A model generated the notes under the pieces. The model ran no database searches. It was not told where the DNA came from and worked only from the letters and a program-made list of their open reading frames with translations. A stretch of 64,000 nucleotides of DNA from Candidatus Wolframiiraptor sinensis (GTDB lineage Archaea > Thermoproteota > Nitrososphaeria_A > Caldarchaeales > Wolframiiraptoraceae): contig JALNKA010000003.1 in the NCBI GenBank assembly GCA_023261815.1, positions 1 to 64,000 on the forward strand, read 5' to 3'. Numbering within the stretch: position 1 is the stretch's first letter; every line of letters starts with the position of its first letter. Shown here one piece after another: positions 2,475-42,713 of the stretch. Position numbers and translations under genes: made by a program.

Positions 2475-3842
2475 ATGGTTTCCGTGAAGCCGCATATCTT
2501 CAGGGCTTATGATATTAGGGGAGTTTACGGCGTGGACCTCGATGAGGAGGTTGCTGAGCTCGTGGGCTTAGCTTATGGAACGCTTCTCGGCAATCGAGGA
2601 AGAATCGTACTGGGCAGGGATGTTAGGATCGGCGGCGAAGCTCTTGCGAGGGGTTTAGCGAGGGGCTTGACTAGAGCTGGATGCGATGTGCTCGACGTTG
2701 GGATGGTCTCAACACCCATGCTCTACTTCTCGACGGTGCATTTCGAGGTGGATGGCGGAATCCAAGTAACGGCAAGCCATAATCCACCTGAGTGGAATGG
2801 GTTCAAGATAGTTAAGCCCGGAGGCGCGACGCTCTCGGCTGGAGCCGGGATGGAGGAGCTGAGAGACATAATTCTCAACAGGAGGTTCAGAGAGGGAGAG
2901 AGAGTGGGCAGGATCGAGAGGGCTGACGCGCTCACGCCCTACATTCAGTTCATGGCCTCGAGGTTCAGAATCGATGCCGGCCTGCGGATCGCGATCGACT
3001 ACTCTAACGGCGCTACAGCGATATGCTTCCCAAAAATAGCGGAGAGGCTCGGTATCGAGGTGGTGAGTATAAATGATGTGCCGGATGGAAGGTTTCCGGG
3101 CCACCTCCCCGAGCCGACCGAGGAGACGTTGAGAGACTTGCAGGAGCTCGTGGTCAAGTCTGGGGCGGATTTCGGAGCAGGCTTCGACGGCGATGGCGAT
3201 AGAGTGGTCTTCGTGGATGATGCGGGCAGGATAATTCCGGGAGACATCACGCTGGCGATCTACGTCAAGCACCTGGATAAGCGCGGGAAAGTGGTTTACG
3301 ACGTATCCAGCAGCAGCGCGCTCAGGGAGATCATCCTCGAGAAGGGATGCGAGCCGATCGAGATGAGGGTTGGGAGGGCGTTTATACTCAACGCCGTCAG
3401 GGAGCTGAATGCCGTCATCGGCGGCGAGAAGAGCAACCACTTCTATTTCCCGGAGATCTGGGGCTTCGACGACGCGGTCTACGCGACCCTCAGGATGGCG
3501 GAGATAATCGCGAAGTCGGGTAAAAAGCTATCCCAGCTCGTCGATGCGATCCCCAAGTATCCCTCGATCCCAATAAGGGCTTTTGAGTGCCCAGATGAGC
3601 TGAAGGTCAGGGTCGTTGATGAGATCGCGAGATATTATCGCGAGAAAGGCCTTGAGGTGAGCACGATAGATGGCGTTAAGGCGTATTTCGAGGATGGCTG
3701 GGTTCTGGTTAGGCAATCCAATACGATGCCTCAGGTGAAGATGACTGCCGAGGCGAAGACCGAGAAGAGGCTGAGCGAGATAGTGAGCGAGGCGGAGAAC
3801 GTGATTGAGGAGACTATAAGGAGGCTCGGTGGAGGAGCCTAA
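2475..3842 (+). CDS. Phosphomannomutase/phosphoglucomutase
   Basis: FRAYDIRG N-terminus (ATG 2475), TASHNP phosphoserine motif, FDGDGDR metal loop, GGEKSNH. Confidence 0.93.
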   Translation: MVSVKPHIFRAYDIRGVYGVDLDEEVAELVGLAYGTLLGNRGRIVLGRDVRIGGEALARGLARGLTRAGCDVLDVGMVSTPMLYFSTVHFEVDGGIQVTASHNPPEWNGFKIVKPGGATLSAGAGMEELRDIILNRRFREGERVGRIERADALTPYIQFMASRFRIDAGLRIAIDYSNGATAICFPKIAERLGIEVVSINDVPDGRFPGHLPEPTEETLRDLQELVVKSGADFGAGFDGDGDRVVFVDDAGRIIPGDITLAIYVKHLDKRGKVVYDVSSSSALREIILEKGCEPIEMRVGRAFILNAVRELNAVIGGEKSNHFYFPEIWGFDDAVYATLRMAEIIAKSGKKLSQLVDAIPKYPSIPIRAFECPDELKVRVVDEIARYYREKGLEVSTIDGVKAYFEDGWVLVRQSNTMPQVKMTAEAKTEKRLSEIVSEAENVIEETIRRLGGGA

Positions 3843-5637
3843 CGCGGGGATGCAGCTCAGGGTAGCCGTCATCGATAGGGAGAAGTGCGATCCGAAGAAG
3901 TGCGGGCTAGAGTGCATCAGGTTCTGCCCGAAAGTCAGGAGCGGGGCCGAGGTAGTCAAGCTGGGGGAAGACGGCTATCCGATAATCGTCGAGCCCCTAT
4001 GCATAGGCTGCGGCATATGCGCTGTCAAATGCCCCTTCAAGGCTATAACGATAGTCAACCTGCCCCGGGAGCTCGAGTCCGACCTCGTCCACCAGTATGG
4101 GCCAAATACCTTCAGGCTCTATAGGCTCCCCTATCCGGAGCCGGGCGCGGTCATAGGCCTGCTAGGAAAGAATGGAACTGGGAAGAGCACGGCCCTCCAG
4201 ATACTAGCCAATATCCTGAAGCCGAATCTGGGAAGATACGACTCCAGCGACCTCAGCCATGAGGAGCTGGCGAGGCAGTTCAGGGGAACTCTACTCCAAG
4301 ACTATTTCACCAGAATAGCTCGAGGCGAGGTCAGGATAAGCTACAAGCCCCAGTACATAGAGAAGATACCGAAGGTCGTAAAGGGGAAAGTTAGAGAGGT
4401 TCTCGAGCGCATCGCGAGTCTCGATAAGATGGAGAAGGTCATCGAGCTCTTCGAGCTCGGGCACCTGCTGGACCGCGAGGTATCAGCCCTCAGCGGCGGG
4501 GAGCTTCAGAGACTCGCCCTTGCCGCATGCTTATCCAAAGACGCGAATACATTTATCATAGATGAGCCGTCGAGCTTCCTAGACATAAGGCAGAGGCTTA
4601 GGGCCGCGGCCGCGATAAGATCCATGCTGAACGGCGATACTAGGATAATAGTCTGCGACCATGATCTCGCGGTCCTCGACTACCTCTCCGACAAGGTCTT
4701 CATACTCTATGGGCGGGCCGGTGTCTTCGGGATAGTCTCGGGGCCATTCGGCATCAGGGAGGGAATAAACATCTTCCTGAACGGCTATATCCCGACGGAT
4801 AACGTCAGGTTCAGGTCCGAGAGAATAGTCTTTCACGCCAGGCCGCCATCTCATCAGGAGATCGTTGAGAGCGGGATGCCGCTCGAGTGGCCCGAGATGA
4901 CCAAGACCTATGATGGATTCAGGCTGGAGGTTAGGGGCGGGAGAATCTACCCGGGCGAGGTTATCGGGATACTCGGGCCGAATGGAATAGGGAAAACTAC
5001 ATTCATCAAGCTTCTCGCGGGTGTTGAGCCATGCGATGATGGATTCAGGCTGGAGTTCAGGTCCGTGAGCTATAAGCCCCAATACCCCGAGCCCAGGGAC
5101 ATGATCGTGGAGAAGGCTCTGAGGGATGCAGCCGGCTCAAAGTTCGAGACGGAGCTATATTGGAGCGAGGTAATCGAGCCCCTCCAGCTCGAGAGGCTCC
5201 TTGATAGAAACATGAGCGAGTTGAGCGGCGGCGAGCTTCAGAAGGTCTCCGTGGCCGAGACCCTATCCAGAGAGGCGGAGATATATCTCCTAGATGAGCC
5301 GAGCGCCTACCTAGACGTGGAGGAGAGATACTCGATAGCAAGATACCTGAGGAGGATCGCGAGGGATAGGCGAGCCTACATCTTCCTCGTCGATCACGAT
5401 TTAATGGTTCTGGACTTCGCCTCGACGAGGCTTATGGTATTCACCGGAAAGCCCGGAATACATGGAATCGCGAATCCGCCGACGGACCTGAGAACGGGCT
5501 TCAATCAATTCCTGAGAGAGGTTGGCATAACATTCCGGAGAGACCCGGAGACGAGGAGGCCGAGAGCAAATAAGCCGGGCTCGCAGCTCGATAAGCTCCA
5601 GAAAGAGGAGGGGGAATACTACTACCTCTCCGCCTAG
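3829..5637 (+). CDS. ABCE1/RLI ribosome recycling ATPase
   Basis: N-terminal FeS cysteines (CDPKKCGLECIRFCP, CIGCGICAVKCP), two Walker A motifs, two LSGGELQ signatures, C-terminal GEYYY. Confidence 0.96.
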   Translation: MEEPNAGMQLRVAVIDREKCDPKKCGLECIRFCPKVRSGAEVVKLGEDGYPIIVEPLCIGCGICAVKCPFKAITIVNLPRELESDLVHQYGPNTFRLYRLPYPEPGAVIGLLGKNGTGKSTALQILANILKPNLGRYDSSDLSHEELARQFRGTLLQDYFTRIARGEVRISYKPQYIEKIPKVVKGKVREVLERIASLDKMEKVIELFELGHLLDREVSALSGGELQRLALAACLSKDANTFIIDEPSSFLDIRQRLRAAAAIRSMLNGDTRIIVCDHDLAVLDYLSDKVFILYGRAGVFGIVSGPFGIREGINIFLNGYIPTDNVRFRSERIVFHARPPSHQEIVESGMPLEWPEMTKTYDGFRLEVRGGRIYPGEVIGILGPNGIGKTTFIKLLAGVEPCDDGFRLEFRSVSYKPQYPEPRDMIVEKALRDAAGSKFETELYWSEVIEPLQLERLLDRNMSELSGGELQKVSVAETLSREAEIYLLDEPSAYLDVEERYSIARYLRRIARDRRAYIFLVDHDLMVLDFASTRLMVFTGKPGIHGIANPPTDLRTGFNQFLREVGITFRRDPETRRPRANKPGSQLDKLQKEEGEYYYLSA

Positions 5638-5680: not shown

Positions 5681-6262
5681 TCAGCGCGCATCATGCTCTT
5701 TGACGATCATGACCTCGGCCAGAGTTGTGTAGATTCTCTTCCCGAGATGCAGTATTATTTTCGCCCTAGCAGGGTCATACACATCCTTGAAGAACTCTTT
5801 CTTAGCATACGCATCGACAACCCTTCCAACGAAGAGATCATGATCTCCACCGACATCCACTATCTTCTCAAGCTCGCATTCTAAGACTCCTAGAGCGTCG
5901 CGGGCGCGGGGAACCCTCAAGGTCCTCGAGGGCTCCAGCTCCAGCCCCACTTCGGCGAATTTATCCCTCTCCCTCCCCGAGATGCTCCCCAGCGCGTGTA
6001 TCTTATCGAGGAAATCCATTCCGAAGATATTTAACGTGAATTGCCCTGACTCCTTTACCAGCCTGTAGGTATTCCTTTGAGGAGCGATGGCGACGCCAAC
6101 CAGCGGCGGCGAGTGGGATAAGGAGACAGTCCAGGCAGCGACCATGCCGCCCGGCCTACAATCAGAGCCCATCGAGATCACTAGAACCGCCGGCCTGGGA
6201 TGGAGTAGATGATAAATTATTCTCCCGGATACCTGCACATATTCCCCGCTCATGACGCCCAA
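5681..6262 (-). CDS. Flavin reductase-like FMN-binding protein
   Basis: HPRPAVLV, SPPLVGVAI, SGRERDKF, GDHDLFVGRVV. Confidence 0.88.
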   Translation of the reverse strand: MGVMSGEYVQVSGRIIYHLLHPRPAVLVISMGSDCRPGGMVAAWTVSLSHSPPLVGVAIAPQRNTYRLVKESGQFTLNIFGMDFLDKIHALGSISGRERDKFAEVGLELEPSRTLRVPRARDALGVLECELEKIVDVGGDHDLFVGRVVDAYAKKEFFKDVYDPARAKIILHLGKRIYTTLAEVMIVKEHDAR

Positions 6263-28562: not shown

Positions 28563-29069
28563 TCAAAGCTTTTTCCAGCTGATCCCCATCCTTTTAAGTC
28601 TCTCCAGCAACTCCATGTACCAGCTCGGCAGCATATAGTCATCTATGGAGTATGAGGGTGTATAGGCTCTTAAATCCAGTATTGGCGTCCCATTATAGAG
28701 GTCGAGGCCTGAGACGTGAAGCATACTCCCATCAACTCTCTTAAGCCCGAGGATTGTTAATGCTATCGGATTGGGCCTATGCGGCGAGTCCGAGCAGAAG
28801 ACTCCGACCTCCGGAATCTCCTCCGGGCTCAGCCCCATCATAATCAATCTCTTAAACCTGACTCTAAGAGTCGTTCTCGCGCTCTCCGGAACCTTATGGA
28901 GCCAGGCGATAGCGATTATGTGGGAGAAGCCTTCTAACCCGATGAGGCCGCTGGAATACTGGGGATAGATCACGATTCTGCCCTCGACGCCCCGAGGCCA
29001 AGACATTGCCACCTCCTCATCGCTATACTCTGTCTCCACGTAGCCTATCGGGTGAAAGCATATCTCCAT
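28563..29069 (-). CDS. tsaA: TrmO/TsaA-like tRNA methyltransferase
   Basis: PIGYV, GLEGFSH, GVF..SPHRPNPI, GLDLYNGTPILD. Confidence 0.88.
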   Translation of the reverse strand: MEICFHPIGYVETEYSDEEVAMSWPRGVEGRIVIYPQYSSGLIGLEGFSHIIAIAWLHKVPESARTTLRVRFKRLIMMGLSPEEIPEVGVFCSDSPHRPNPIALTILGLKRVDGSMLHVSGLDLYNGTPILDLRAYTPSYSIDDYMLPSWYMELLERLKRMGISWKKL

Positions 29070-29163
29070 GCTATTTTCTGATGAAGGGCCATGAAAATTT
29101 AAACAATCTTCCAGACGATAGCCTCAAATCCCCCTAATAGCCAAGTTTTCATTAGGTGGCTCA

Positions 29164-29994
29164 ATGGCGTTTGAGATCCCATTGGAAGTAGAAGAGAAGG
29201 TGATGAGCGGGAGGGCTGCGGAGAAGAGATACGCGCTGCTCGGTTTTGGCGGATGGCCCGATGCTGGCAGGGTCGCATCACTCACGGTCGAGTATTTCGC
29301 GAGAGCCCTTAAAGCGGAGAAGCTCATGGAGCTCGATTGCTCGGAGATCCATGATCTAACAATGAATAGGCCTTTCGTGGAGATAAGGGAGGCGCTGATC
29401 GAGAGCTTCCGCATGCCCGGAGCAGTAATTTATTTCTGGAAGGATCCGGGCCAGAGCTCATCCCTCATAATCTTCAGCGGCGTCGAGCCGAGCCTTCGAT
29501 GGAGGGAGTTTTCAGACTTTATCATAGGCTTATGCAAAACGATATCAGCCAGAAGAATATATCTCGTGGGAGGAGTATTGGATCAGGTTCCGCACACTAG
29601 GAGACCGAGGATCTCCGCCGTCGTGAACATGGAGCACTTGAAATCTGAGATGCTGCTATCAGGTCTCGATCTAACGGAGTATAGCGGGCCGGCTAGCATC
29701 CACAGTTACTTGATGATAAAGGCGAAGCAGATGGGCTTGGAGGCTGTGGGGCTCTGGGCTCATACGCCAGCCTACGTACAGCATCCGAACGCGATCGCCG
29801 CCTATCACCTGGCCGTGAAGCTCGCTGAGCTGATGAAGATAACGATAGACCTCAGCGAGCTCAAGATGATGGCCGACTCGCTCCGGCAGGCGATAAGCAG
29901 GGCTATGGAAGAGAATGCGGACCTGAGAAGGATGGTCGAGGAAATCGAGAGAATGTATGATGAGCGGTATGGGAAACCATCCTATATCGCGTGA
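29164..29994 (+). CDS. PAC2 family proteasome assembly chaperone
   Basis: GFGGWPDAG, GVEP, VPHTR, YSGPASI, LWAHTPAY, C-terminal YIA. Confidence 0.85.
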   Translation: MAFEIPLEVEEKVMSGRAAEKRYALLGFGGWPDAGRVASLTVEYFARALKAEKLMELDCSEIHDLTMNRPFVEIREALIESFRMPGAVIYFWKDPGQSSSLIIFSGVEPSLRWREFSDFIIGLCKTISARRIYLVGGVLDQVPHTRRPRISAVVNMEHLKSEMLLSGLDLTEYSGPASIHSYLMIKAKQMGLEAVGLWAHTPAYVQHPNAIAAYHLAVKLAELMKITIDLSELKMMADSLRQAISRAMEENADLRRMVEEIERMYDERYGKPSYIA

Positions 29995-30027
29995 AATAGA
30001 GGGGTAACGTGGAGCACATTCCTCCTA

Positions 30028-30564
30028 TTATTGGCCGAGCTCCCTCTTTATGCTCTCGAGCTCCTTCTTGAATATCCCGTAGGTCTCATCATCGTAGAGG
30101 CAGAAGATGACGCGCTCGATTCCGCTTCCCCTCTGGAGGTACTCCACGGCTGCTCTCAGCATGATCTTAGCGCACCTCTCCTTAGGAAAGCCGAATACTC
30201 CAGTCGAGATCGCTGGAAAGGCTATGCTCTTGACCCGATGCTGCTCCGCGAGCTTGAGCGAGTTCAGGGTCGCGCTGCGGAGCTTATCATCCTCATCTCC
30301 CTCGCCCATCCTCGGGCCGACCGCATGTATCACGTATCTCGCCTTGAGCTTCCCCGCGCCGGTGATCACGGCCCCGCCGACCGGGCAGTAACCAATCCTA
30401 TCGCACTCCTCTTGGATGCTCCAGCCACCCTTCCTCAGAATAGCTCCAGCAACGCCTCCGCCCATCTTGAGCCTAGAATTGGCCGCGTTGACGATGGCAT
30501 CAACCTCGAGCTCCGTGATATCGCCCTTGACAAGCTCAATAACGGAATTACCCACCCTAAGCAT
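30028..30564 (-). CDS. Macro domain (ADP-ribose binding/hydrolase) protein
   Basis: GDIT, AIVNAAN, GGGVAGAI, VIHAVGP, PAISTGVFGFP. Confidence 0.95.
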   Translation of the reverse strand: MLRVGNSVIELVKGDITELEVDAIVNAANSRLKMGGGVAGAILRKGGWSIQEECDRIGYCPVGGAVITGAGKLKARYVIHAVGPRMGEGDEDDKLRSATLNSLKLAEQHRVKSIAFPAISTGVFGFPKERCAKIMLRAAVEYLQRGSGIERVIFCLYDDETYGIFKKELESIKRELGQ

Positions 30565-30695
30565 CAGGTGACCATTATGCGGTGGAGGAATATAGGTTTG
30601 AAGAAGCGTTGTGCTCTATCATTCCGTGCTCTTTTCTTCTCGAGTGGTGTTGCGCGAAATGCTTTTAGCCTGCCTTCCTGCTGGAGGACCGGCTC

Positions 30696-31355
30696 ATGGT
30701 GTCCGTTAAGCTCTTGGAGGAGGATGAGAAGAGCGTTAAGCTCTTGTTGTCGGGTGTTCCGCTCGCGGTGGCTAACGCGATCCGGCGCATGGCGATAAAT
30801 GAGGTTCCGACGATGGCGATCGAGGAAGTGCTCATAATCGAGAATAGCTCCAGCATGCCAAACGACGTCCTGGCGCACAGGATCTCCCTCATACCATTCA
30901 TCTCGGATATAGACCACTATGTGCCCCCAGAGGAGTGCGGATGCGGAAAGAGGCTTGGATGTGAGCGCTGCGCGGTCAGGTTCGTCCTGAGAGCTGAGGC
31001 CAAGGATGAGCCGATAACTGTTTACAGCGGAGACATCGTGCCAGAGGAGGAGACATCTGTGAAGCCCGTGAGCCCTAGGATTCCGATAGTCAAGCTCGGG
31101 CCTGGCCAGAAGATTGAGCTCGAGCTCTATGTCAGAGTCGGAAGGGGGAGTAAGCATGCGAAGTGGCAGGCTGCGATAGCAACGCTTTACGAGCCCGAGG
31201 ACGGCGGAAAAGATGAAAGAATACTTTATGTCGAGTCTATAGGCTTCCTGCCGCCCAAGAGGATCCTTGTGGAGGCTGCTAAAGCGCTGGAGAAGAAGGT
31301 GCTTGGGCTCGAGAGCCTCTTCCAAGAGGCCATCCAGCAGGGGCCCGGGAAATGA
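30696..31355 (+). CDS. rpoD: DNA-directed RNA polymerase subunit D (Rpo3)
   Basis: ANAIRR, EVPTMAIE, LAHRISLIP, CxC..C..C cluster, HAKWQ. Confidence 0.95.
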   Translation: MVSVKLLEEDEKSVKLLLSGVPLAVANAIRRMAINEVPTMAIEEVLIIENSSSMPNDVLAHRISLIPFISDIDHYVPPEECGCGKRLGCERCAVRFVLRAEAKDEPITVYSGDIVPEEETSVKPVSPRIPIVKLGPGQKIELELYVRVGRGSKHAKWQAAIATLYEPEDGGKDERILYVESIGFLPPKRILVEAAKALEKKVLGLESLFQEAIQQGPGK

Positions 31356-38386: not shown

Positions 38387-39307
38387 TTGAAGATGCTGAG
38401 CGATGCGTGGAGATCGCTTGTGGCAATATTCTTGGCGCTGTCACTAGCGCTAGCGTTAAGCTGCCTCGGTGCGGAGGCTCAGCTCGATGGCGCTGATATG
38501 GGGGAGAACCTCCTCTGGCTCACTATAGTGATCGCCGGCATGGATAGCATTAATCCCTGCGCATTCTACATACTAACCTTCCTGCTCAGCATCCTGATCT
38601 GCGCGAGGGATCGCGTCCGCATCCTCCTCATCGGCGGGATATTCGTCCTCATCTCAGGTCTCGCCTACTTCCTCTTCATGACCGCCTGCCTGAACGTCTT
38701 CAGGATCCTGAGCGCGCTCGGCCCATTCTTCCTAATAATCATGATAATCGTGGCGGCCGCCGGCGCCATAAACGTGAAGGACTACTTCGCTCACGGCCGC
38801 GGCCCATCCCTAGGCGTATCAGAGAGAAGTCTCGCCAAGATAGGCAAATCAGCTAGAAGACTTGCGCGCGTGAGCTCACTGGGAGCTCTCGCGGCGAGCT
38901 CGGCGGCGCTCGCCTTCACGGTCAATATCTATGAGTTGGCCTGCACCCCTGGATTCCCGCTCTACTACACGAGCATCCTAGCATCGCTCGGCATAAGCTA
39001 CATCGAGTACTACCTCTATCTCGCGCTCTATAACCTAATATACGTCATGCCGATGCTCGGGATAGTCCTCGCATTCGCCTATACTCTGGGGAAAATGAGG
39101 TTGTCCGAGGCCTGGTCGAGGAGGATAAAATTGTTCTCGGGATATCTCATGATCGCGCTCGCCCTCTCGATGATCGCGAGGCCATGGGCTCTCGCCTTCC
39201 TAGACACGACCCTACAGCTGATCGCCGCATCAGCCGTCGCGGCGATCCTAACTATAATAGTCTATGAGCGGGTTATGCGCAGAGGATTCCGTAAGCTATC
39301 TTTATGA
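38387..39307 (+). CDS. DsbD/CcdA-like thiol-redox membrane protein
   Basis: DSINPCA and ELACT.GFP paired cysteines in a multi-TM protein. Confidence 0.7.
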   Translation: MKMLSDAWRSLVAIFLALSLALALSCLGAEAQLDGADMGENLLWLTIVIAGMDSINPCAFYILTFLLSILICARDRVRILLIGGIFVLISGLAYFLFMTACLNVFRILSALGPFFLIIMIIVAAAGAINVKDYFAHGRGPSLGVSERSLAKIGKSARRLARVSSLGALAASSAALAFTVNIYELACTPGFPLYYTSILASLGISYIEYYLYLALYNLIYVMPMLGIVLAFAYTLGKMRLSEAWSRRIKLFSGYLMIALALSMIARPWALAFLDTTLQLIAASAVAAILTIIVYERVMRRGFRKLSL

Positions 39308-39331
39308 GCTCGGGGGCATCCTCACCACTAG

Positions 39332-40036
39332 ATGCCGCTAGCCGCAAAGATCTTCGAGATAAGGGCTGAGACGGCGCTCGAGGAGATAGCTGACAAGCTT
39401 ATGGGCTACAGGGTCGTCGAGGAGAGGGAGGAGGACGGCCAATCCTTCGAGCTCATAACGGAGGTTAGGGATCTGGATCTCAAGAGCGATAGGCTCGAGG
39501 GCGTGTTCAGCAGGGATAAGCTGATAGTCGTTAATCAGCGCGGGAGGCTCGTGCCGGTGCTCAAGACGGTCGAGGCGAGGATAATCTTCAGGAGAGCCGA
39601 AGATCTCATGCTCCTCACCGTCGTTCAGAAGAAGCACTTCGCGAACGCCGTGGCCTCGCTCCTCTCCCACCACCTCTTCCTATCCTATAAGGCAATAACA
39701 GAGGCCAGAGTCTCGCCATCAGTGATGAGGGAGTTTCATGAGAGAAACCCGGAGGGAACAAAGGTGATATACTTCGACGACCTCGACTTCGTGGACGTCG
39801 ATAAGCTCGCCCTCTACGGCGACTCCCTGAAGAACACTGCTCTCTACGAGGAATACCTCAGGCATGGCAAGATCCACTATTTAGTTTATCAAGTCCCGGA
39901 AAAAGGTTATGTAATGGGATTAACGCGAAACTGTGTAGTAACCTCGTTCACAAAAATACCGATTGATGAGTTCATAAATTATATTGAACAAGTAATTATC
40001 CCTTTGATAATCAAAAGTAAAAAAAGTGAATGTTAG
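39332..40036 (+). CDS. Hypothetical protein, chimeric: the last ~52 codons come from an inserted element
   Basis: GC-rich host codons up to ~39879, abruptly AT-rich afterwards; a second copy of the C-terminus lies at 41648-41811. Confidence 0.85.
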   Translation: MPLAAKIFEIRAETALEEIADKLMGYRVVEEREEDGQSFELITEVRDLDLKSDRLEGVFSRDKLIVVNQRGRLVPVLKTVEARIIFRRAEDLMLLTVVQKKHFANAVASLLSHHLFLSYKAITEARVSPSVMREFHERNPEGTKVIYFDDLDFVDVDKLALYGDSLKNTALYEEYLRHGKIHYLVYQVPEKGYVMGLTRNCVVTSFTKIPIDEFINYIEQVIIPLIIKSKKSEC

Positions 40037-40039
40037 TCT

Positions 40040-40100
40040 AAAGGTAAAAAGGAGGGAAGGGGAAAGAAAGGTGGAGGGGTTGTGTTCCTCCTTTCTTTTT
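40040..40100. terminator. Putative bidirectional terminator between the replacement tail and the endonuclease
   Basis: Purine tract AAAGAAAGGTGGAGG followed by complementary TTCCTCCTTTCTTTTTT, between convergent stop codons. Confidence 0.4.
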
Positions 40101-40816
40101 TATCTATCTTTTTTGTTTGATGATATCTTTTCTCTGAGAGTCTCCATTTTTCTTCGTATAGTGAATCCGACAGCATCATAGAATTTAATTAAATTCTCCT
40201 TTCGTCTGATCTCTAAAATGTAAATGTGGTCTTGTTTATACTTGTACCATTTTCCTGTTTGTTTGTTAAAGAATGTTGACTTTAGACGTCTTTGGGTTGT
40301 GATTGTGGCCTCGATTCCTAAATCGTTTAATAGCTCTTTAACAAGCTCTAAGAGCGCCTTATTATAGTTGGCTGCAACTATCTCGTATCGCCAACGTTCT
40401 TTGACAATACAGCCTTCCGCATCGAAGAAGGCTCTACATGCTTCTATAGGGTATTTCTTGAGTATATGTCGGACCGAGGTCACGTCCTTACATGCTTCGG
40501 CAAGTATCCTGCATAATATAACGCTCCTTCCAACCACTGTCCAGCATTGATGATTTTTGTCCCAAAACGGTTTATAGGCCCTCCTTTTGCCAAGACTTAT
40601 TGCAAGGCATTTCCCCCACTCGGCGGCAAATTCGTAATCCACCGACCTTAGCATTATCCCATAGTGATGGTGCCTAAAATCTATAGTGAAAGCCCCATCA
40701 CCGAGCCATCCGGCGATGGTGTAGGAGAGTTCTGGACACTCCACCACCCTATTGTATCGACGTAGTATGGGTTTAACTTCAAAAAGTTTTTGGATAATCC
40801 GTTCAGAAGGCATCAT
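40100..40816 (-). CDS. Free-standing double-motif LAGLIDADG homing endonuclease
   Basis: Motif 1 LSYTIAGWLGDGAF, motif 2 ACRAFFDAEGCI, N.N..LLE.VKELL..LGI, FYDAVGFTIRRK; AT-rich. Confidence 0.9.
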   Translation of the reverse strand: MMPSERIIQKLFEVKPILRRYNRVVECPELSYTIAGWLGDGAFTIDFRHHHYGIMLRSVDYEFAAEWGKCLAISLGKRRAYKPFWDKNHQCWTVVGRSVILCRILAEACKDVTSVRHILKKYPIEACRAFFDAEGCIVKERWRYEIVAANYNKALLELVKELLNDLGIEATITTQRRLKSTFFNKQTGKWYKYKQDHIYILEIRRKENLIKFYDAVGFTIRRKMETLREKISSNKKDR

Positions 40817-41147
40817 TACGTCACCTCGAAGAACACGTCCTCGACGGGGTCATAGCATACGTGCGGCTTAGAATTCCAACAGTGCCCATATAAATTCTCC
40901 TAGTCATCCTCCATCTCTCTCCGTCCATTAGCTCGGCTCCCATTCTACCGGCCCCCCTAGCCAGAATCCTCAAAGCCCTCCTCCTCGACCTCGCCGTAAG
41001 ATACCTCTAAGCGATCGCGTTCATCCTCCGATAAAGCCGGCTCCAATCCTCGTCGAAGGCTTCTCCAGGAATTCTCCGATCTGAAGCTGGAGAGTAGATC
41101 ACCATATCACCCGATAAAGCCGCTCTATCTCGTTAGGAAGGCCATGG

Positions 41148-41500
41148 ATGCCGAATTGGGAGAGAGGTCAGCGTAGCCAGTATAGGAGGCGTCAAGGGCA
41201 GGGAAGCATTGTTGTATTATGTTCATCCACCGTGATGCCCGGAATATACGCCATAATAGTCAAGCCGAGAAGCGATCTCGAGATAAAGTATCCATGCAAG
41301 GTCAGGATGGAGGATGGAGCGATAATAGTGATAGACAGGGAGAGGGCTGAGAAAGTGGCTGAGGAGAAATGATGCTAAGCGATCCAATACTATTGCTGGT
41401 TGAGGCTAATGGGGGCAAAGTGGAGGGCAGGAGCATTCAGGGGATGATATATCTTCTGGCGCGCGTCCTCAGGTTACCATTATCGCGGGAGTCCTTTTAA
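41148..41500 (+). pseudogene. Two short overlapping ORFs or remnants inside the element
   Basis: 41148-41372 (..MPGIYAIIVKPRSDLEIKYPCKVRMEDG..) coupled by ATGA to 41369-41500 MMLSDPILLLVEANGGKVEGRSIQGMIYLLAR..; both look truncated. Confidence 0.4.
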
Positions 41501-41532
41501 GGGTAGTCTCGGAGGCTGTGAGCATGCCGAGA

Positions 41533-41557
41533 CTAGTTAAGCTAGTTAACTAGTTAA
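41533..41557. repeat. CTAGTTAA x3 short tandem repeat
   Basis: ctagttaa g ctagttaa ctagttaa. Confidence 0.7.
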
Positions 41558-41647
41558 GATAGAATCATGAAAATAAAAATATTATTCGAGGCGAGCAGGA
41601 GCTCGGATAAATTGGCGAAGGATATATATCCAACTTTACTTTTTAGC

Positions 41648-41811
41648 ACATAGTATTCACGGTTACTGGGACGAATAGGGTCATGGGGCTGACGAGAAAC
41701 TGCGTGGTAACGTCCTTCACCAAGATGCCGGAGTCGGAGTTCATCGAGTACATAGATGGAATCGTTATCCCGCTGATACTCAAGAGCAGAAGGGAGCATG
41801 GGGGGGAATGA
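41648..41811 (+). pseudogene. Displaced original 3' end of the 39332 gene
   Basis: Reads IVFTVTGTNRVMGLTRNCVVTSFTKMPESEFIEYIDGIVIPLILKSRREHGGE*, 29/51 aa identical to the tail at 39881-40036; no start codon; its TGA overlaps the mvk ATG. Confidence 0.9.
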
Positions 41812-42713
41812 GAGCAGCGGCCTCAGCCCCAGGCAAGGTGATACTATTCGGCGAGCACTTTGTCGTCCACGGCGCCCCGGCGCTCGTGGCCTCAATAGAC
41901 CTCAGGGCAGCGGCGATCGTCGAGCGCGCGGAATCTGGGGGCGTTAGGCTAAGTGATGGATCCAAGGATAATCCGGCGGTGAAGGCTGTTGAACATGTCC
42001 TGCGCAGGCTTGGCGCGAGCGCGAGCCTGATCATCGAGATTGAGTCAAGAATACCTCAGAGCGTCGGCCTGGGCTCCTCAGCTGCCCTTGCGGCATCCTC
42101 TTCAGCCGCGGCGCTTCATCTTCTAGCCGGAAGGCTTGACCTCAACCTGATACTTGAGTCATCGCATGAGGGCGAGAAGATTATTCACTACATGCCGTCC
42201 GGCATAGATACCTCGATCGCGACATTCGGCGGGATCGGGGTTTACGCGAGATCGAGCGGGTACAAGAAGCTCGACATCGCGCTCGAGGAAATACTCGTGG
42301 TGAATACTGGTATGCGGAGGAGGACCGGGGATATGGTATTGAGGGTGAGGGGGTTCGCCGAGAGGGAGCCTGAGCAGTTTAAGCAGCTCCTAGATGAGGC
42401 TGGACGGATAATCGAGGAAGGGCTTGATGCGTTGAGGAGCCGTGACTTGGAGAGGCTTGGAATGCTCATGAGCAGGAACCAGGAGCTTCTGAGGGTTGTG
42501 GGGGTTTCATCGCCCGAGCTTGAGGAGGCGATCGCGATGTGCCTGGATGCCGGAGCCTATGGAGCCAAGCTAACGGGAGCTGGAGGTGGAGGTTGCGTGA
42601 TAGCCGCTGCGGACCCCGATAAGATGGACGAAATAATCTCGAGGATCTCAGGAAGATTCGAAGTATTCAGGGTTAGGCTCGGCGTCGAGGGAGTTAGGGT
42701 CGAGCGGCCGTGA
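41808..42713 (+). CDS. mvk: Mevalonate kinase
   Basis: APGKVILFGEHFVVHG, GLGSSAA, PSGID, KLTGAGGGG. Confidence 0.94.
   Translation: MRAAASAPGKVILFGEHFVVHGAPALVASIDLRAAAIVERAESGGVRLSDGSKDNPAVKAVEHVLRRLGASASLIIEIESRIPQSVGLGSSAALAASSSAAALHLLAGRLDLNLILESSHEGEKIIHYMPSGIDTSIATFGGIGVYARSSGYKKLDIALEEILVVNTGMRRRTGDMVLRVRGFAEREPEQFKQLLDEAGRIIEEGLDALRSRDLERLGMLMSRNQELLRVVGVSSPELEEAIAMCLDAGAYGAKLTGAGGGGCVIAAADPDKMDEIISRISGRFEVFRVRLGVEGVRVERP

Follow-up and report, generated by a model that had tools for sequence, protein, structure and literature searches.

In the first 64,000 nucleotides of contig JALNKA010000003.1 from Candidatus Wolframiiraptor sinensis (Caldarchaeales; GenBank assembly GCA_023261815.1), a stretch hereafter called the window, a protein-coding gene upstream of a mevalonate kinase-like gene (mvk) is interrupted by a 1773-bp insert (positions 39875-41647) carrying a gene for a predicted LAGLIDADG homing endonuclease. 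The interrupted gene, here termed the host gene, is a hybrid: its native 5' part is continued in frame by a 3' end of foreign origin, and the native 3' end is left behind downstream of the insert as a startless relic (Table 1). Genomes of the order Caldarchaeales are labelled G0xx, with G000 being the genome of the window, and loci, contigs and public sequencing runs are labelled L, C and X, respectively.

Table 1. Features at the host gene locus, in positions of the window.
Feature	Position	Strand	Description
Host gene	39332-40036	+	Open reading frame (ORF) of 234 aa, hybrid of native 5' part and foreign 3' end
Native 5' part of host gene	39332-39874	+	Codons 1-181, ends ...HGKI
Foreign in-frame 3' end, left end of insert	39875-40036	+	HYLVYQVPEKGY...KSKKSEC, then stop
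Spacer	40037-40099	.	63 bp between two convergent stop codons, read directly from the sequence
LAGLIDADG homing endonuclease gene	40100-40816	-	238 aa, double-motif (monomeric-type), converges on host gene
Right part of insert	40817-41647	.	No convincing gene; repA, repB and AT-rich end (~41530-41647)
repA repeat	40823-40998	.	Directly upstream of endonuclease start
repB repeat	41126-41466	.	Copies elsewhere in the genome (blastn)
Native 3' end relic	41648-41811	+	(Y)IVFTVTGTNR...EHGGE, then stop; startless, preceded by in-frame TAG
mvk	41808-42713	+	Mevalonate kinase-like GHMP kinase; Pfam GHMP_kinases_N and GHMP_kinases_C

The insert stands in place of exactly four bases, TGGT, of the empty site described below, and the same codon is both the start of the foreign tail and the point where the relic resumes. 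GC content falls from ~0.52-0.58 to 0.31-0.41 from positions ~39800-39900 on and comes back up only near 41700, with the GC content at third codon positions (GC3) of the host gene being 0.77 up to ...HGKI and 0.28 in the tail. When the in-frame tail and the relic were compared without gaps, 29 of 51 residues and 90 of 153 nucleotides (59%) were found to be identical, a similarity between the two flanks of the insert that lies far beyond chance (tblastn E 3.6e-17). Within an identical block of 15 residues, VMGLTRNCVVTSFTK, 10 of the 15 codons differ synonymously. The relic frame, which reads HIVFTVTGTNRVMGLTRNCVVTSFTKMPESEFIEYIDGIVIPLILKSRREHGGE between two stop codons, ends at 41809-41811 and thereby overlaps the mvk start codon at 41808 (ATGA), making mvk the downstream neighbour that anchors the native gene order. 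An initial annotation, made from the sequence alone, had already described the turn to AT-rich codons after ...GKIH and the startless downstream copy, and its counts of identical residues and synonymous codon differences proved exact. Its assignment of the downstream copy as the native tail is likewise supported, by the overlap with mvk and by the position of the relic among the native tails of the genus (see below).

Antisense to the host gene, the endonuclease ORF matches the Pfam family LAGLIDADG_3 (PF14528; E 4.7e-13, 49.6 bits versus a cut-off of 22.5). Two motifs with acidic residues, AGWLGDG (D40, invariant) and FFDAEG (E134, conserved in at least 90%), were identified in an alignment of 17 sequences, in agreement with the convergent double-motif ORF called by the initial annotation. 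The AlphaFold2 model, with a predicted local distance difference test score (pLDDT) of 89.9, has the predicted pseudo-dimeric alpha/beta fold of monomeric LAGLIDADG enzymes. Its best Foldseek match is I-DmoI (E 1.2e-8, target TM-score (TMt) 0.69), and PI-PfuI and I-Tsp061I were also matched. By sequence, a search of the PDB with the endonuclease gave 0 matches, and a scan of genome contigs gave one distant match, with 34% identity over residues 128-233. Judging from its motifs and modelled fold, the antisense ORF is a double-motif, I-DmoI-like LAGLIDADG homing endonuclease, with cleavage of the element-free allele as its putative activity. The spacer between the two convergent genes contains a GGAGG...CCTCC inverted repeat followed by a T-run, a putative terminator. 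At the other end of the insert, mvk would have lost its translational coupling to the host gene, and signals for its expression could lie in the AT-rich final 120 bases.

In the sister species G009, G007 and G002, among others, the gene is uninterrupted and reads ...HGKIWYIVFTVAGTNRVMGLTRNC...EHGGE (GKIWYIVFTV...), with mvk overlapping its stop codon. The empty allele corresponding to the window is AAGATC-TGGT-ACATAGTA, reading KIWYIVF, and across relatives the site is AAGAT(A/C) TGG TAC ATA GTA TTC at the nucleotide level. The initial annotation had guessed an empty site with ...CAC-TAC..., which has to be corrected to AAGATC-TGG-TAC-ATAGTATTC; the empty allele joined to mvk that it expected in relatives was found in sister genomes, in metagenome contigs and in public runs that also hold the occupied allele. 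For the public data, Logan contigs of four runs were aligned to positions 39300-42300 at 90% likeness. The joint 39874>41648 was recovered, with 1773 bases skipped and TGGT between the two sides, i.e. exactly the empty allele. In run X19, an RNA library, the joint is spanned by a contig of 1101 nt that extends 545 nt to one side of it and 552 nt to the other; in the DNA runs X3 and X6 it is carried by short unitigs whose shorter arm measures 29 nt. Read as a rough guide and not as cell fractions, contig depths were 108 for the occupied and 113 for the empty branch versus 232 for the flank in X3, and 54 and 355 versus ~432 in X6, with the flank unitig ending at 39874 in both runs. Branch depths that sum to the flank depth look like an allelic bubble in one population. 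The bridging contig of X19 differs from the window at 24 positions and hence belongs to a related strain; no cover was found over the insert in this run, which contains only the empty allele of that strain. The occupied allele lacks TGGT, and DNA runs contain the joint too, which identifies the joined form as an allele rather than a product of RNA splicing. Out of 28 metagenome loci retrieved with the host protein, 18 had native 'WY' tails, eight had 'YY' tails and two ended before the tail. One of the latter, L100, stops exactly at the junction, a break of the kind that an empty/occupied bubble would produce.

The occupied allele was also recovered independently of the window. In a different metagenome, contig L110 runs colinear with 2548 nt of the window at 97.3%, covering the tail, the endonuclease gene (98.7% identical), the repeats and the relic as well as the beginning of mvk. 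Of the 23 listed runs, 11 contained at least half of the sampled words, and the 20 runs with any part of them represent nine studies, nearly all of hot springs. An assembly chimera, in which DNA of two organisms had been joined, might be suspected from the metagenomic origin of the assembly, from the sharp change of composition at the junction and from the contig L100 ending exactly there. Its probability is negligible, however, with L110 being colinear across the whole element and with contigs from two further public runs of different studies (X1 and X3) crossing both junctions, and that of a third (X6) the 5' junction; a check of this kind had been called for by the initial annotation, and no chimera was seen. 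Between the window and L110 the endonuclease gene diverges by 0.4%, the new tail by 1.2%, the relic by 4.4% and mvk by 5.2%, from which it follows that the cassette is younger than its flank. Five of the seven changes in the relic are non-synonymous, so that the relic looks unconstrained, and the ratio of non-synonymous to synonymous divergence (dN/dS) of the relic versus its orthologues is 0.03-0.08, so that it looks recently orphaned.

All native tails read so far begin with W-Y, and those of G000/L110, L087/L111/L089, G018, G003 and G008 begin with Y-Y (H-Y in the window), followed by LVYQVP. The initial annotation had attributed the in-frame tail to another lineage and had proposed separate trees for the N-terminal part and the tails, and these trees bear it out. 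The mobile tails ('GKIYYLVYQVP') form one clade (87/83) across G000, a G007-like species, G003, G008 and G018, the last of another genus, and both relics, that of the window and that of the second variant described below, are placed among the native tails of the genus. In the tree of the 5' part, G000 groups with G009, G002, G005 and G007 (99/96) and G018 with its own genus (98/94), i.e. the N-terminal part, like the relic, is typical of the species. In the approximately unbiased (AU) test, a constraint that placed the G000/L110 tail with the native tails of close species was rejected (p-AU 0.00165), and so was one that kept the three genus g2 tails as a group (p-AU 8.9e-9). The composition of the G018 gene parallels that of the window, with a GC3 of 0.76 and then 0.28 in the tail. 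Among the mobile tails, synonymous divergence (dS) is saturated, non-synonymous divergence (dN) is 0.08-0.37 and dN/dS is ~0.06-0.10 where computable, which marks them as old, selected coding sequences. The AT-rich tail resembles in style the native tails of the AT-rich genus g5 (...WYIVYQVP...), and no donor can be named.

Some of the mobile tails occur apart from an endonuclease gene. Those of G003 and G008 are GC-ameliorated 'YY' tails with neither an endonuclease gene nor a relic, and in both genomes (L022 on G003:C26 and L021 on G008:C20) synteny breaks at the 3' end of the host gene, where a convergent HAM1-like gene is followed by bud32-like and kae1-like genes. In G003, mvk is instead found behind pheS, without a relic (L086 on G003:C17). 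These two genomes probably represent the end state after loss of the endonuclease. In G018 (L011/L115, G018:C99:1-490) the AT-rich 'YY' tail is followed by an AT-rich sense-strand ORF of at least 124 aa, and the contig stops 490 nt beyond the tail. This ORF had one homologue among 76 genomes, located beside insertion sequence-like ORFs in G027, and no Pfam family was matched by either of the two. A search of the protein atlas gave a weak lead to restriction-endonuclease/PDDEXK_5 clusters, and the ORF may be a different nuclease using the same site.

The host gene is present, essentially as a single copy, in 75 of the 76 genomes of the order. Searches of Pfam and NCBIfam with the host protein gave no family at E up to 0.1. 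Its AlphaFold2 model (pLDDT 90) has E. coli RdgC as the best fold match in the PDB (E 4.3e-6, probability 1.00, query TM-score (TMq) 0.54), with all of the next matches above E 7e-3, and the predicted fold thus resembles that of RdgC, a recombination-associated DNA-binding ring protein in E. coli. In the model, three strands and the C-terminal helix are contributed by the replaced tail, which would make it structurally necessary. The foreign tail is of full length, ends at the orthologous position and retains the invariant residues G196, R199, N200, C201, V202 and F206. Downstream of the host gene, mvk lies within 1.2 kb in 18 of the 39 relatives read, and the two genes overlap in the closest species.

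The insertion site is occupied by a second cassette variant in L087, L111 and L089, three of the eight 'YY' loci. Their in-frame tail is a different one (YYLVYQVPGSNWILGLARNG... / YYLVYQVPGSNWILGLARNGVIVSFTKIGEADF...), departing from otherwise invariant residues at T198A and C201G, and their antisense LAGLIDADG gene, 46% identical to that of the window, encodes an uninterrupted protein of 285 aa in L087 (4728-5585), whereas L089 and L111 have frameshifted copies. Both L087 and L111 continue with a relic, MMWYIVFTVAGTNR...EHEEE (MMWYIVFTV...), and then mvk. The boundaries, AAGATA|TAT TAT... to the left and ...GAT(A/G)|TGG TAC ATA GTA to the right, define the same site as in the window. Between this insert (~1.5 kb in L087) and that of the window no DNA similarity is detectable, and only the tail and the antisense endonuclease gene are common to both. 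The initial annotation had suggested a search for endonuclease homologues with the same combination of tail and endonuclease, and this variant provides one, as does a more distant LAGLIDADG-like ORF in a ligase gene (see below). L087 matches G007 without any difference in both the 5' part and the relic, and G007 itself carries the empty site, so that presence/absence polymorphism is found in a second species as well. In L087 the relic opens with an in-frame ATG ATG and could be translated as a 57-aa peptide (6061-6234).

Directly upstream of the host gene, L087 (1-3993) holds provirus- or plasmid-like ORFs together with a tyrosine-recombinase-like gene in two overlapping frames (frameshifted). 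Phage 21 and e14 in the icd gene of E. coli are integrative elements with a replacement 3' gene end, a class in which gene end, element and relic are arranged as they are here. It could therefore be argued, also from the genes upstream in L087, that the insert is the remnant of an integrase-mediated element with a replacement 3' end in its attachment site, and the endonuclease mere cargo. We regard this as very unlikely. No integrase or transposase is present in the ORF lists of the 1773-bp insert or the ~1.5-kb insert of L087, as the initial annotation had stated for the window, and the Pfam search with the endonuclease ORF and a 74-aa ORF of the window and with the L087 endonuclease ORF revealed no recombinase family. 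In L087 the native 5' part separates the integrase from the insert, and G000, like the sister genomes with empty alleles, has a conserved membrane-protein gene in the place of the upstream element. Finally, an integrase element is difficult to reconcile with two variants that share only the tail and the antisense endonuclease gene.

The arrangement recurs in another gene of the same genome. A scan of G000 for same-strand protein-level duplicates up to 5 kb apart, performed on 17,428 fragments, gave 26 pairs; the pairs of the window and of contig C33 were inspected, and many of the other 24 look like tandem paralogues. On C33 (1169-4997, L117), an ATP-dependent DNA ligase gene shows a native 5' part, a foreign tail, an antisense ORF and a relic, as at the window locus. 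The ligase gene (1169-2923, 584 aa) encodes all three ligase domains. Identity to G007 is 94% over residues 1-425 and 91% between the downstream relic (4485-4997) and the ligase tail of G007, but the in-frame tail reaches only 62-65% with any of the 13 relatives compared. The junctions coincide at ATAAA, which is both the start of the foreign tail and the point where the relic resumes. The antisense ORF (2862-4109, 415 aa) had no Pfam match, and was aligned by hhalign to the endonuclease alignment with a probability of 94.3% (E 1e-7) over 253 columns, including both motif positions. Extra or separated C-terminal pieces of the ligase were also noted in three sister genomes, at G010:C34:8621-9073, at G011:C99:1091-1576 and on G003:C65 and C41, and may mark occupied ligase alleles or contig breaks.

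On contig C12 of G000 (28690-30845; L056 and L058), an insert of 1358 bp separates codons 181 and 182 of a KaiC/RadA-like ATPase gene in a clean split. This insert holds repB, repA and a sense-strand LAGLIDADG gene (29631-30464) that is 39% identical to the one in the window, and contains no replacement tail. The gene halves are 88-93% identical to intact orthologues of 266 aa, and in G009 an endonuclease fragment is located behind the orthologous gene. All three endonuclease-invaded genes in G000, i.e. the RdgC-like, DNA ligase and KaiC/RadA-like genes, are DNA-metabolism or RecA-superfamily genes.

Such a clean split without a replacement tail is intron-like anatomy, and archaeal group I and bulge-helix-bulge (BHB) introns bearing LAGLIDADG genes are known from rRNA genes (PMC6125680, where the phrase 'protein-coding' is absent from the accessible part of the text). 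In the window, a splice from after 39879 to 41649 would restore the frame. The insert might then be a mobile intron of the BHB, group I or group II type and be removed from the mRNA by splicing, making the relic a real 3' exon and the in-frame tail an incidental or alternative end. The evidence leaves this reading a very small probability. Exact removal of the insert would give AAG ATC ACA TAG, with a premature stop, because TGGT is missing, whereas the joined form in the public data, DNA runs included, contains TGGT and is an allele. No Rfam family, group I and II introns included, was found in the window or at the C12 locus at E up to 0.1, and no bulge-helix-bulge appeared in folded 25- and 35-nt junction constructs of the two inserts. 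Moreover, the in-frame tail is complete, has kept its invariant residues and evolves with a dN/dS of ~0.1 versus other mobile tails, and the relic, taken here as the exon, has changed mostly non-synonymously between strains. An intein was also considered and rejected, as the endonuclease gene is on the opposite strand and stop codons stand between all parts. The initial annotation had seen neither intron nor intein, integrase nor transposase, and ORF lists, Pfam, Rfam and the BHB folding concur; no spliced form was seen either, and neither the Rfam and BHB searches nor the TGGT joint in the DNA runs gave a sign of splicing, although this was only weakly tested.

The repeats of the insert belong to a wider set in G000. 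Both in the window and on C12, repA is situated directly upstream of the endonuclease start. Around ten copies of repB were found in the genome, mostly intergenic or at contig ends and alongside two further repeat modules, with module lengths of ~100-300 bp; further places are C5:18880-19930, C33:50290-50720 and C9:60420-60870. By blastn, copies of repA and repB are spread over many contigs of the genome, often at their ends, and the assembly is broken by them. Depth at the two repeats exceeds 1000 in X3 and X6, versus ~100-250 beside them. Among 40 relatives searched, neither repeat was found beyond one weak 55-nt match in G018. Rfam gave no match on seven loci at E up to 0.1, repeats included, and a tRNA/tmRNA search on nine loci found none. 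The interspersed repeats may be similar to miniature inverted-repeat transposable elements.

Homologues of the window endonuclease were surveyed for tail duplications at 22 loci with 1.5-kb flanks, 21 of which were testable (the flank of L036 being too short). A same-strand tail duplication was present in one of these 21, namely the window locus itself, so tail replacement is not general in this endonuclease family. Two of the other loci had duplications of another kind: in L042 (G025:C1:885767-889390) the endonuclease homologue is flanked by a tRNA-like duplicated sequence, and in L030 (G005:C3) an inverted protein-level duplicate lies at the locus edge.

Taken together, we consider it highly probable that the insert is a mobile, tail-replacing endonuclease cassette, intron-less and intein-less, in an archaeal chromosome. 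The anatomy, the polymorphism of empty and occupied alleles, the foreign tail, the recurrence at the same site and in a second gene, and the endonuclease fold and motifs all belong to what was observed. Several points nevertheless weigh against this interpretation. The tail duplication is confined to one of the 21 loci, and unrelated interspersed repeats make up ~0.8 kb of the insert. That the cassette spreads by homing is inferred from the recurrence at one site and the low divergence of the cassette, the probable target site, AAGATC TGGT ACATAGTATTC, from the insertion point only, and the hybrid gene is the putative expressed form. The groups compared in the AU tests were named after the tree had been seen. 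Concerning the polymorphism, the joints in X3 and X6 are short and were accepted at 90% likeness, and such joints can come from other organisms, contig depths are no measure of cell fractions, and the robust bridging contig stems from the RNA library X19, which may contain DNA. Lastly, an integrase-bearing element immediately precedes the host gene in L087; it is not part of the insert, and G000 lacks it.

An alternative is a one-off event of illegitimate recombination or horizontal gene transfer that brought in a foreign gene end along with an adjacent free-standing endonuclease gene, with the endonuclease as a passive passenger and the polymorphism a product of ordinary recombination and loss. 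Cleavage by the window enzyme is putative, the endonuclease homologues are mostly intergenic and lack tail duplications (20 of the 21 testable loci, and also L029), and the unrelated repeats inside the insert fit a passive transfer as well. We nonetheless hold such a transfer to be improbable, although less so than an intron or an integrase element. Cassettes with endonucleases only 46% identical sit at the same codon, in genes whose 5' parts are nearly identical to those of empty alleles, the ligase gene shows the same architecture, the start of the foreign tail and that of the relic coincide within a few bases in all three cases, and the cassette is less diverged than its downstream flank.

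If the insert is a mobile tail-replacing cassette, its spread may be pictured as follows. In an empty allele, the endonuclease would cut near AAGATC|TGGT|ACATAGTA, a position within codons 182-183 of the RdgC-like gene, and the break would be repaired from an occupied allele, the 5' part of the gene serving as left arm and the relic tail plus mvk as right arm. The repair would copy the 1773-bp cassette into the gene and orphan the native tail as a relic. As the cassette brings an in-frame tail and a stop codon, the host gene would be kept intact without RNA or protein splicing. The recoded tail (W182 to Y or H, with 10 of the next 14 bases different), together with the disrupted site, would make the occupied allele uncuttable, in keeping with the immunity through recoding that the initial annotation had proposed. 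After fixation, the endonuclease would decay, frameshifted copies having been seen, or be lost, leaving a permanently chimeric gene.

In archaea, homing endonucleases are known to reside in inteins and in introns of rRNA genes, insertions that are masked by splicing. An atp6 hybrid gene of Allomyces macrogynus mitochondria was reportedly described by Paquin, Laforest and Lang in 1994, and intronless homing by free-standing endonucleases of T-even phages is said to have been reported by Belle, Landthaler and Shub in 2002. No chromosomal tail-replacing endonuclease cassette of archaea or bacteria was found in the literature searched, which covered neither supplements nor subscription literature; this agrees with the initial annotation, which knew of no described archaeal case, although such a claim is not provable from that literature. 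Elements of this kind have been described mainly in fungal mitochondria, and the window cassette is an archaeal chromosomal counterpart of the 'mORF' hybrid genes. In the latter, as far as the available part of the source goes, atp6, atp9, cox2 and nad3 of Glomus sp. are hybrids, and the hybrid was shown to be the transcript by reverse transcription PCR (Beaudet et al. 2013, PMC3630166). As in the window, an endonuclease ORF, mostly of the LAGLIDADG family, is located in the 3' part of the gene, with a foreign in-frame C-terminal copy upstream and the native relic downstream, the relic being close to sister species and the inserted copy diverged, and neither intron nor intein is described in that part of the text. 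The two systems differ in that the present one resides in an archaeal chromosome and not in an organelle, and targets RdgC-like and DNA ligase genes instead of respiratory genes. Furthermore, the window endonuclease is antisense and convergent, whereas those of fungal atp6 and nad3 are, by the same partial source, fused in phase. Here, natural populations also contain empty next to occupied alleles, and the same site is used by two cassettes that have diverged deeply.

Other free-standing endonucleases are more distant parallels. Those of T-even phages, e.g. the homing endonuclease gene mobE (PMC2790892, available in part), also lie outside introns and inteins, and the window gene would share with them a spread by double-strand-break repair with co-conversion of flanking markers. 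The phage genes are, however, intergenic, belong to the GIY-YIG and HNH families and cut a neighbouring gene, and the part of the source at hand mentions no replacement gene end. I-DmoI, I-Tsp061I and PI-PfuI have the same monomeric double-motif LAGLIDADG fold and archaeal thermophile hosts, but they are located in inteins or introns of rRNA and need splicing at the protein or RNA level. Free-standing chromosomal LAGLIDADG genes occur in Haloferax glycosylation islands, and Shalev et al. (2018, PMC5867893) put forward gene conversion of the DNA beside them. Unlike the window gene these are described as intergenic, with flanks resembling no protein-coding gene, and the accessible part of that article reports neither insertion into a gene nor a replacement end.

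The archaeal element thus avoids the need for splicing by bringing its own gene end, which extends a fungal-mitochondrial strategy to archaeal chromosomes and to core genes, including that of the ATP-dependent DNA ligase. Since occupied and empty alleles coexist in hot-spring data, the cycle of invasion, decay and loss can be followed in nature, and the two diverged cassettes at one site constitute a natural experiment in the co-evolution of endonuclease and target. Mosaic genes and orphan fragments of the type found here can mislead annotation and single-gene phylogenies, and the enzymes are candidate thermostable, long-site nucleases with an inferable target site. It is possible, although we would not yet call it probable, that Caldarchaeales carry a whole class of such 'exon-carrying' homing cassettes, i.e. 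natural gene drives on conserved DNA-metabolism genes that move C-terminal modules between species and genera and decay after fixation. If so, orphaned relics, e.g. the one opening with ATG-ATG in L087, might be reused as small ORFs or as an expression signal for mvk. Chimeric genes (as in G003 and G008) and rearrangement breakpoints would then be what remains of past invasions, and endonuclease-driven sub-genic transfer would be a regular force on the core genes of these archaea.

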